Virus record (IMG/VR): IMGVR_UViG_2703718802_000011
Reading direction: 5' to 3' (one strand)
DNA length: 48,734 nt
From: a virus
Taxonomy: Duplodnaviria; Heunggongvirae; Uroviricota; Caudoviricetes
Shown: piece after piece, positions 3,634-6,770 of the stretch
How positions within the stretch are numbered: position 1 is the first letter of the stretch
Layout of the letters: every line of letters begins with the position of its first letter
Notes under the pieces: model-generated
The model's input: the letters and a program-made list of their open reading frames with translations, nothing else
Databases searched by the model: none
What the model was told of the DNA's origin: nothing
Position numbers and translations under genes: made by a program

Positions 3634-3711
3634 ATGGTTTTTGTAATATTATATTAAAAGTTCATACAGCGACTATAGCATCATTGCGAAAAATATCAGG
3701 AGGTGAGTTTA

Positions 3712-4764
3712 ATGTTACGAAAAAGCAAACTTACAGAGATATATAAAAGGTTTGGTTTTACTGAAGAAAATACAGGTAACGAAAGTATTGCTGTATATTC
3801 TATTAAAACAGGGCACTACCATAACGCGGACATACTTCCACTAAATAATGAGGTTAATGTAAATCAAACCTTTGAAGAATATAGGCAGTTAGGTTATGCA
3901 TGTCAAATTAAAAAATATCAGTCTTATGAAGAAGCACATAAGGAATTATTTAATGGCTTCTTTAGCGTCGATTCAACTAAAGAAAGGTTGATTAAAGATT
4001 ATAATACTTTCACAGATTCAATTGTAAAAATTCACTCACCTACTGCAACTTATTCCTACATAAATTCAAAATATTACTTAAATGGTGTTATTGGCGAAGC
4101 TAATGTTGTTACGGAAATATTAGAGAGAATACAACATAGGCGTCCAATTCTGTTTTTGATTGAGGCTGCAGCCGGTTTTGGAAAGACTTGCACGGCGTAT
4201 GAATTATTGAGGGAGATTATAGTTAACAATATAGGGAAAATACCATTATTTTCAGAACTATCAAGGAATAGGCAAGCAAAAATATTCAGGTATGTACTAT
4301 TAGATGAAATTGATAGAAGTTTTCCTTTGTTAAGCTCAGCCTTAGTAAGGAATGAAATAAGAGCAGGAAATGTACCAGTTATACTTGACGGGTTTGATGA
4401 ACTATTGCATGAAAGTACAAACGGAATTGAAAATAATTATGAAAAAACAGAGCCAATGCTGGAAACAATAAGTGAGCTTCTAACTGATAGTGCAAAAGTG
4501 GTTTTGACAACTCGAAGAACAGCTATATTTGACGGAGATGAATTCCATCAGTGGATAGCATCACATCAAGAAGATTTTGATGTGATAAGAATAAGAATTC
4601 ATGAACCACAAATTGAAGACTGGCTTCCAGGTCAACGTTTAGATGAAATTTCATCGACAGGATTTCCTCTTAACAAATTATCAAACCCTGTACTGCTATC
4701 ATTTCTAAGATGCATCGACGACACCGACTTTAATAAAGTTATAAGCGACCCAACAACTATATAG
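3712..4764 (+). CDS. NACHT-like STAND P-loop NTPase, N-terminal part (Walker A/B plus TxR motif)
   Basis: AGGAGG at 3698-3703, ATG at 3712 (the track ORF begins at GTG 3703). Motifs 'EAAAGFGKT' (Walker A), 'VPVILDGFDELLHE' (hhhhDGhDE-type Walker B) and 'KVVLTTRRTA' (TxR) match the NACHT signature. Confidence 0.7.
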   Translation: MLRKSKLTEIYKRFGFTEENTGNESIAVYSIKTGHYHNADILPLNNEVNVNQTFEEYRQLGYACQIKKYQSYEEAHKELFNGFFSVDSTKERLIKDYNTFTDSIVKIHSPTATYSYINSKYYLNGVIGEANVVTEILERIQHRRPILFLIEAAAGFGKTCTAYELLREIIVNNIGKIPLFSELSRNRQAKIFRYVLLDEIDRSFPLLSSALVRNEIRAGNVPVILDGFDELLHESTNGIENNYEKTEPMLETISELLTDSAKVVLTTRRTAIFDGDEFHQWIASHQEDFDVIRIRIHEPQIEDWLPGQRLDEISSTGFPLNKLSNPVLLSFLRCIDDTDFNKVISDPTTI

Positions 4765-5819
4765 TGAGGAAGTATTTTGATTCAATGCTTGAGCGAGAAA
4801 GAAAAAGACAAGATTTATTAATGTCTATTGAAGATCAATATACTATACTAAAAATAATAGCTGACGACATGGTCGAGGGTAACTACACATCTGAGTCTAG
4901 AGAGTATATATCGTTAGTCATAACTGAAAAGAATCAACAACTCTTGGAGGCTACAAGAAAGCTTTATACTGTAGATGAAAGACCAACTACTGACGAATTA
5001 GTTAATAAATTAGCATCGCATGCTCTATTAGATCGGTCAGGCTCAGAAAACCAAGGTATTGGATTTGTTAATGAATTTGTTCTTGGTAATTTTGTTTCTG
5101 AAAATATTATTAATGATAAGTCAAATGAATGGATTGGTGATAAACGTTTTATAGAACCAGCAGTGCAATCTTATATGCCGAGGATCGATGATGAAAAAGA
5201 ATTACTTTGGCATAGCTTAGAGTTTGCTTTATATTTTATGTCAGGTAATGATAAAATCCTTTATAGTCATTTGCTTATAGGAAAAGTTCCATTAGATTTA
5301 AAAAATGATAGTGTTGAGCAATTGTCTATATCAAAACTTTCTTTAGGCGATATAAATATAATACATGATACTATCTTTGTTGATTGTTCGTTTTTTAGCA
5401 GCATATTTACCTGTGGTAATTATAAAAACGTTACATTCGTGAACTGTTCTTTTATAGATTGTAGTTTTAACGAATTAAGTGGTAGGGAAGATATTTATTT
5501 TTTGGGATGTGAATGTGACAATGATGCTATTAATAAAAAATCTGTCGAGATAAACAGTGAAAATGATCACGATATTACAGATTGTGATATTTACATCTTA
5601 GAGAAGTTCTGTCCCAGAGGGAGTGTTAGCTATCATAAGCATCGGCCTATAAAAGGCTTATGTTCTAACAACAATCAATTTCAGTTAAGTGAAATACTCC
5701 ATTCTTTAGATAAATTGAGGAAAGACGGTCTTTTACTTACGCCAGACAAGCGTTCGTTCCTTGAACTTAACATGGCAAGAATATCAGAGATTAAAGCAAT
5801 TCTTGGGAGGAATTTCTGA
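4764..5819 (+). CDS. STAND NTPase C-terminal helical region plus cysteine-rich pentapeptide-like repeat domain
   Basis: Starts at GTG 4764 overlapping the upstream TAG (alternative ATG at 4785). 'GFVNEFVLGNFV' resembles the NACHT helical-domain motif; repeats 'FVDCSF', 'FVNCSF', 'FIDCSF' at about aa 204-245. Reading frame differs from ORF1. Confidence 0.6.
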   Translation: MRKYFDSMLERERKRQDLLMSIEDQYTILKIIADDMVEGNYTSESREYISLVITEKNQQLLEATRKLYTVDERPTTDELVNKLASHALLDRSGSENQGIGFVNEFVLGNFVSENIINDKSNEWIGDKRFIEPAVQSYMPRIDDEKELLWHSLEFALYFMSGNDKILYSHLLIGKVPLDLKNDSVEQLSISKLSLGDINIIHDTIFVDCSFFSSIFTCGNYKNVTFVNCSFIDCSFNELSGREDIYFLGCECDNDAINKKSVEINSENDHDITDCDIYILEKFCPRGSVSYHKHRPIKGLCSNNNQFQLSEILHSLDKLRKDGLLLTPDKRSFLELNMARISEIKAILGRNF

Positions 5820-6724
5820 TGTATAACGGGAATGAATTGCGAATTATTCAAAGTTTGCAAAAAGATATAGAAGATGAACTTAATCGTATTGGATTACTTT
5901 ATCGTTTTTTTTCGAGGACAAAATCAGAAAGCTCAATAATTAAGAAATATGAAAAAGAGCCTAATAAATACTCAGAGGATGGTAAAAAAATTCAAGACTT
6001 ATTTGGGGTTAGGATAATATTATATTTTCCTGATGATTTATTTATTGCTCAAAAAACACTGGAGAAATTATTCGAAATTGAATCTAAAACCGTAGACGAA
6101 ACCACGGCTAATCTCTTTGCGGCAACTCGATGCAATTACGTCTTTAAGTTACCAGAAGTATTATCAAATGATAGTGTCTTATTAAAGAAATATTCTTATA
6201 TTGATACTACTTTTGAAGTCCAATTTAGAACTATTTTATCTGAAGGATGGCATGAAGTTGAGCATGATCTACGCTATAAGTGCAAAGAGGATTGGGTTGA
6301 GCATAATGACCTTAGTCGCGCGCTGAATGGAATTTACGCCTCTTTGGAAACATCTGATTGGGGAATAATGAAGTTATTTGAGGATTTAGCATATAGAAAT
6401 TATAAGTCAAGCGCATGGTCCGCTATGCTAAGAAATAAATTAAGATTGAGAATGGACGATAAGCTTGATGAAAAGATAATTTCAATAATTAATGAGAAAG
6501 AGCTTGGTAAAAAGTTTTATAGAATTGACAGAGATCGTTTGTTATCGTTAATGTTAGATTATAATATTGATATACCAATTAATCTTAATAATATAATTTA
6601 CCTTTGTAATTATTTTTTCATAAAATCTACGGAGCTTCAGGATATAGCCCCTGCTTTAATAATGAAAAAGCTTACAGATGCTGATGAAAAATTCAATAAA
6701 AATACTATTTTAGCATCTAAATAA
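5819..6724 (+). CDS. RelA/SpoT-fold (small alarmone synthetase / toxSAS-like) nucleotide pyrophosphokinase-domain protein
   Basis: ATG at 5819 overlaps the upstream TGA (TGATG); GGGAGG at 5805-5810. Motifs 'SRTKSESSIIKK' (R-x-K-x3-S-x3-K), 'DLFGVRIILYF' (D-x2-G-x-R-I) and 'EVQFRTILSEGWHEVEHDLRYK' match the synthetase-domain signature. Confidence 0.7.
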   Translation: MYNGNELRIIQSLQKDIEDELNRIGLLYRFFSRTKSESSIIKKYEKEPNKYSEDGKKIQDLFGVRIILYFPDDLFIAQKTLEKLFEIESKTVDETTANLFAATRCNYVFKLPEVLSNDSVLLKKYSYIDTTFEVQFRTILSEGWHEVEHDLRYKCKEDWVEHNDLSRALNGIYASLETSDWGIMKLFEDLAYRNYKSSAWSAMLRNKLRLRMDDKLDEKIISIINEKELGKKFYRIDRDRLLSLMLDYNIDIPINLNNIIYLCNYFFIKSTELQDIAPALIMKKLTDADEKFNKNTILASK

Positions 6725-6742
6725 TAACTATCTCCGGCTATT

Positions 6743-6770
6743 AAGTAGGCCTTGTATTTTAGGCCTACTT
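6743..6770. terminator. Hairpin immediately after the RelA/SpoT-like gene (aagtaggcc / ggcctactt stem)
   Basis: 9-bp perfect stem with 9-nt loop starting 19 nt after the stop codon; flanking A/T runs but no canonical U-tract, so terminator function is tentative. Confidence 0.35.

Follow-up and report, generated by a model that had tools for sequence, protein, structure and literature searches.

A conserved bacterial operon pairing a NACHT-type NTPase gene with a RelA/SpoT-fold enzyme gene is probably an uncharacterised anti-phage module

RSH-fold toxins (toxSAS, CapRel) arrest growth: the RSH synthetase fold is the growth-arresting effector in toxSAS and, in CapRel, an anti-phage abortive-infection enzyme. 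To our knowledge, all characterised STAND systems use a repeat region as the sensor and place the NTPase upstream of the effector. The bNACHT proteins defend against phage, and alarmone synthetases are among the NACHT-fused effectors listed by Kibby et al. (10.1101/2022.07.19.500537). Clade 15 in Table S1 of that catalogue contains the architecture NA-iREase2+NACHT+Pentapeptide from V. cholerae, Paenibacillus daejeonensis, A. baumannii and P. fluorescens; its tested members are bNACHT09, bNACHT34 and bNACHT69. The same table assigns a Reticulomyxa protein with the architecture Tox-RelA+NACHT+Pentapeptide+beta-propeller to clade 10. Among the N-terminal effectors listed for fungal NLRs is RelA_SpoT, and these NLRs include RelA_SpoT-NACHT-WD40 fusions (PMC4986451). 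The pairing of NACHT and RelA/SpoT domains is thus not wholly unprecedented, which qualifies the view of the initial annotation that the gene pair is unrecognised as a named system. That view otherwise stood, as neither protein matches any model in PADLOC v2 and the literature searched holds no description of a NACHT plus RelA/SpoT operon pair.

The pair was found in a window of 48,734 nt (the whole stretch of DNA analysed, IMG/VR virus record IMGVR_UViG_2703718802_000011), where it forms a two-gene operon on a mobile island at ssrA; all features of the operon described here lie on the + strand. The three annotated reading frames, ORF1 (3712-4764), ORF2 (4764-5819, GTG start) and ORF3 (5819-6724), were borne out, as were both overlaps: the stop of ORF1 and the start of ORF2 share TAGTG (4762-4766), and the NACHT stop and RelA/SpoT start share TGATG (5817-5821). 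ORF1 and ORF2 are the 5' and 3' parts of a split gene for an NLR-like STAND NTPase of the NACHT type (3712..5819), a probable pseudogene in the window, whose intact allele encodes the 701-aa WP_000944877.1. ORF3, intact in the window, encodes a putative RelA/SpoT-fold pyrophosphokinase of 301 aa (WP_000282312.1). The annotated Shine-Dalgarno sequence AGGAGG was found 8 nt before the NACHT ATG at 3712 (3698..3703), and a second one, GGGAGGA (5804..5810), lies within the 3' end of the NACHT gene; the RelA/SpoT gene is predicted to be translationally coupled to the NACHT gene. The sole + strand consensus match 5' of the operon is a promoter-like site, CTTACA-17-TATTAT (3583..3611, 9/12 positions matched), which constitutes weak evidence, as the region holds 25 promoter-like matches compared with 17.5 expected from shuffling. 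The hairpin that had been noticed after the last stop is GC-rich, has a 12-bp stem and begins 17 nt 3' of the RelA/SpoT stop (6741..6772; dG -20.3 kcal/mol, z = -4.4, 0/200 shuffles equally stable); it lacks a U-tract and was not called in the terminator scan. The operon is AT-rich, as annotated: its G+C is 0.31-0.34, while the prophage at 27-46 kb has about 0.55-0.60. Next to the operon is a decayed type II REase, and the integrase reported nearby is accompanied by a second recombination gene: a serine recombinase (9555-11117) and a tyrosine integrase (11394-12767) are both located downstream.

A comparison over 3.7 kb with E. coli ETEC4073 shows a single difference, an additional TA in the window at 4758..4759 that extends (TA)2 to (TA)3 (TATATA vs TATA) and shifts the frame at codon 349/350. 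With this TA removed, ORF1 and ORF2 become one 701-aa protein, annotated as “NACHT domain-containing protein”. The insertion is missing from 57/58 complete E. coli genomes with the locus, and each of the 58 loci with the syntenic pair in other taxa (58/58) encodes a contiguous NACHT protein of ~700 aa; the same TA-insertion allele flanks an IS2 in strain RM10410. Because the insertion is private and the homologues are contiguous, the 1-nt overlap between ORF1 and ORF2 is best read, at the level of sequence comparison, as a frameshift scar rather than operon architecture. The three-gene operon of the initial annotation is hence an artefact, and the ORF1-ORF2 complex proposed there dissolves into one frameshifted gene. 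A system of three separate functional proteins, with ORF1 as NTPase, ORF2 as adaptor or sensor and ORF3, could draw on the presence of the ORFs, on the GTG of ORF2 overlapping the ORF1 stop codon and on some conceivable termination-reinitiation. It is extremely improbable and already contradicted by the comparative sequence data: the 2-nt insertion is restricted to the lineage of the window, the split arrangement occurs in 0/58 loci of other taxa, no Shine-Dalgarno sequence was found before the ORF2 start, and the NACHT module itself is interrupted by the break, which lies between helical domain 1 (HD1) and the winged-helix domain (WHD) according to the secondary structure of the AF2 model. 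The NACHT gene of the window, split by the 2-base insertion, is therefore probably dead, and this copy of the operon most likely inactive, a point missed in the initial annotation.

The assignment of ORF1 to the NACHT NTPases was upheld, and sequence motifs and structure models support it for the joined ORF1 and ORF2. All of its annotated motifs were located in ORF1 and are invariant in the 53 NACHT homologues: Walker A (P-loop) AAGFGKT (4168..4188; G155, G157, K158 and T159, with K158 at 4183-4185), Walker B VILDGFDELLHE (4378..4413; DGFDE residues, D226-E230) and the sensor-1 strand VVLTTRRT (4498..4521; T266, T267, R268 and R269). H436 in the WHD is invariant in the homologues, too. The Pfam NACHT model matches 32/53 family members, the window protein's own score being 19.1 bits, under the gathering threshold of 26.7. 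The AF2 model of the full-length protein (pLDDT 83.7) has NLRC4, NAIP, Avs4, NLRP2 and NLRP3 as top Foldseek matches (E = 7e-10 to 1e-7). Its N terminus is an NA-iREase2 domain of inactive restriction-endonuclease fold (aa 6-123, 3727..4080; Pfam PF22723, 6e-34) that was found in 53/53 homologues; D40 is conserved, a (D/E)xK motif is absent from the domain, and an invariant A63-C64 occupies the strand where it would be expected. The Pfam name itself says “inactive”. Towards the C terminus, a pentapeptide-repeat beta-helix (full-length aa 533-600, 5313..5516), presumed to be the sensor, was matched by Pfam Pentapeptide_4 at 0.0013 and in 13/53 homologues with E up to 2.4e-6; the AF2 model has a series of short strands here with pLDDT above 90. 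A small, conserved alpha/beta domain follows the beta-helix and reaches 5816. No recognisable effector domain was found in the NACHT protein.

ORF3 carries all four synthetase motifs where they had been annotated: RTKSESSIIKK (RxKxxxSxxxK, 5915-5947), DLFGVRIILYF (DxxGxR, 5996-6028), EVQFRT (ExQxRT, 6215-6232) and WHEVEHDLRYK (HExxHDxxYK, 6248-6280). R33, K35, S39, K43, D60, G63, R65, E133, Q135, R137, T138, H145, E146, H149, D150, R152 and K154 are invariant in 50 homologues. Sequence and model together support the RelA/SpoT synthetase fold: the nucleotidyltransferase domain (aa 32-157, 5912..6289) matches PF04607 at 3.2e-15 (56.8 bits vs a cut-off of 27), and the AF2 model (pLDDT 88) has RelP/RelQ as top folds in Foldseek (8e-8, TM up to 0.73). 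It is followed by an all-helical, family-specific C-terminal domain (aa 165-300, 6311..6718; AF2 pLDDT mostly above 90), for which the structure search returned no PDB match covering aa 165-300 and which has 248 representatives among 1.84 billion, only behind RelA_SpoT heads. The sequence-profile search of the PDB matched only housekeeping SAS enzymes, RelQ/SAS1 and RelP/SAS2 (5DEC, 6EWZ, 6FGK, 2BE3; E = 5e-10 to 7e-7), while CapRel appears at rank 38 of the fold matches (E = 1.5e-4, TM 0.35). With these nearest relatives, so weak a resemblance to CapRel by fold and no conserved antitoxin-type partner, the label “toxSAS-like” could not be retained. This proximity of ORF3 to housekeeping SAS rather than to RSH enzymes known to be toxic counts against an anti-phage reading.

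MalT-type regulators are STAND NTPases. The pair might correspondingly serve stress or metabolic regulation, the NTPase sensing an endogenous ligand and switching on a private alarmone synthetase, with a stringent response tuned for the host or the mobile element. The proximity to RelP/RelQ would fit, as would the ORF3 relatives at 37-41% identity (Bacteroidales, Oscillospiraceae), which stand alone beside unrelated genes, among them housekeeping genes; because these distant relatives stand alone, the ORF3 family is not intrinsically NACHT-dependent. However, ORF3 does not conserve the acceptor G-loop of (p)ppGpp synthetases: the predicted ATP/Mg2+ donor site is complete and the acceptor site unusual, with the DYIxxPKxxGYxSxH acceptor/G-loop of RelQ/RelP replaced by a conserved F-x-A-T-R-C-N-x-(I/V)-F-K-L. 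The genomic distribution bears on the same reading. In other genomes the pair is often flanked by metabolic and housekeeping genes, which also weighs against the anti-phage reading, but its occurrence is sporadic and horizontally transferred: 58/5426 complete E. coli genomes (about 1%) hold the locus, always on an island, Enterobacter sichuanensis carries a 99%-identical copy, and others reside on plasmids and integrase islands. Pseudogenisation is frequent, and the NACHT architecture matches a catalogue clade having proven anti-phage members. We therefore regard a regulatory role of this kind as unlikely.

The pairing itself is real and, judged by synteny, conserved across many bacterial phyla. 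NACHT lies directly upstream on the same strand in 58 of the 80 genomic loci found via ORF3, spanning Gamma-, Beta-, Delta- and Epsilonproteobacteria, Bacteroidota and Firmicutes, and the RelA/SpoT gene is present in 7/7 IMG/VR loci found via NACHT; the pair is present in locus L020 of Paenibacillus daejeonensis, a species listed under clade 15. The two genes overlap or are separated by 1-4 nt in P. aeruginosa, V. parahaemolyticus, Klebsiella and Pantoea, and in the Klebsiella and Pantoea plasmid copies, at 36-39% identity, the RelA/SpoT gene is still 1-2 nt downstream. Their divergence is correlated (Spearman 0.59, p = 1.6e-6). Parts of its ecology are defence-like: in P. aeruginosa the pair shares an integrase island with Abi_2, another copy is located on an IncF plasmid near pifC, and elsewhere RM, PbeA or PDC-S70 genes count among its neighbours. 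A search of 50,697 sequenced phage genomes found no member of the family, which is neutral evidence.

Inactivations of the operon were seen in several forms and appear to have arisen independently: the frameshift of the window, an IS2 plus ISVsa5 disrupting NACHT in RM10410, and an E88* in the RelA/SpoT gene of strain 300709. P377, with two matching pieces and an IS3 transposase between them, may be a further case. In the two lineages with a destroyed NACHT (window, RM10410) the RelA/SpoT gene is 100% intact. Such tolerance fits an enzyme that needs activation, not neutralisation. Alternatively, the frameshift or the IS elements could account for it through polar effects. These lineages are hard to reconcile with a toxin-antitoxin or addiction pair, in which a toxSAS-type toxin, ORF3, would be held in check by NACHT as antitoxin or inhibitor so that the island or plasmid is stabilised, unless ORF3 expression was lost as well. 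In favour of such a pair, toxSAS systems are established examples of RSH-fold toxins next to genes that neutralise them, the N terminus of ORF3 has weak matches to PADLOC PDC-S33 and to AbiGI, and plasmids as well as islands carry the two genes. Yet a 700-aa NTPase that is conserved and keeps its Walker motifs invariant does not resemble an antitoxin, and no sequence similarity of ORF3 to solved toxSAS structures was detectable, so that an addiction function is highly unlikely.

We consider it moderately probable that the locus encodes an NLR-like sensor activating a pyrophosphokinase effector encoded in trans, as a two-gene operon of which the window holds a decayed copy; the pair is then probably an uncharacterised anti-phage module. 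The C-terminal repeat region would sense an infection cue, upon which NACHT may oligomerise in an ATP-dependent manner and recruit or activate the separately encoded RelA/SpoT enzyme, probably via the inactive REase domain as the proposed adaptor. Having no enzymatic effector of its own, the NACHT protein would therefore act through this enzyme, which might arrest the cell by an alarmone-type nucleotide or by pyrophosphorylation of another acceptor. We infer the anti-phage role, the signalling direction and the product or target. The wiring could also be reversed, with the RelA/SpoT enzyme sensing and signalling (self-sensing in the style of CBASS or CapRel) and NACHT reading the nucleotide product, e.g., by the inactive REase domain, and executing the response. 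The conserved private C-terminal domain of ORF3 could be regulatory or sensory, and inactive enzyme folds often turn into ligand-binding domains. But the NACHT protein offers no recognisable effector domain for executing a response, and fused RelA_SpoT-NACHT proteins have RelA at the effector (N-terminal) position, which makes this order of events decidedly unlikely.

The sensor-to-effector direction favoured here shares its logic with Avs/AVAST, in which a STAND NTPase bearing its sensor at the C terminus oligomerises on phage recognition and switches on an effector, and the NACHT model has Avs4 among its best structural matches. Avs proteins differ in belonging to another NTPase clade, in their TPR-type sensors and in effectors that are usually N-terminal fusions; the parts of the 2026 Avs survey text and supplements available to us contain no RelA/SpoT effector. 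With toxSAS (FaRel, FaRel2, PhRel, Tas1) and CapRel(SJ46), ORF3 has the RSH synthetase fold and the donor-site motifs in common. Unlike them, the system lacks a small antitoxin, an SAH hydrolase and a pseudo-zinc-finger C-terminal domain, and regulation would come from the separate NACHT NTPase of the operon. RelQ and RelP, the best sequence and structural matches, share RxKxxxSxxxK, DxxGxR, ExQxRT and H..YK; they are chromosomal housekeeping enzymes, whereas ORF3 is mobile, NACHT-linked and carries about 135 aa more, its helical C-terminal domain. bNACHT clade 15 has the same tripartite layout, with a central NACHT (Walker A, Walker B, sensor-1) and a C-terminal repeat sensor. Its tested proteins carry fused effectors (TIR, Schlafen), bNACHT69 having a different N terminus, and for bNACHT69 at least, a single gene was cloned; here an inactive REase forms the N terminus, and a gene of its own, translationally coupled to the NACHT gene, encodes the presumed effector. 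The RelA/SpoT partner of the NA-iREase2-NACHT family goes unmentioned in the catalogue of Kibby et al. Fungal NLRs (PMC4986451; P. anserina NWD5, PMC3321046) likewise combine RelA/SpoT with NACHT, with RelA at the effector position, and some RelA/SpoT-NACHT fusion proteins also contain pentapeptide repeats like the NACHT protein of the window. In contrast to the fungal and Reticulomyxa proteins, which are single fused eukaryotic polypeptides, the two parts are here encoded by separate genes in a bacterial operon, and the inactive REase domain fills the N-terminal slot that RelA/SpoT occupies in the fungal NLRs.

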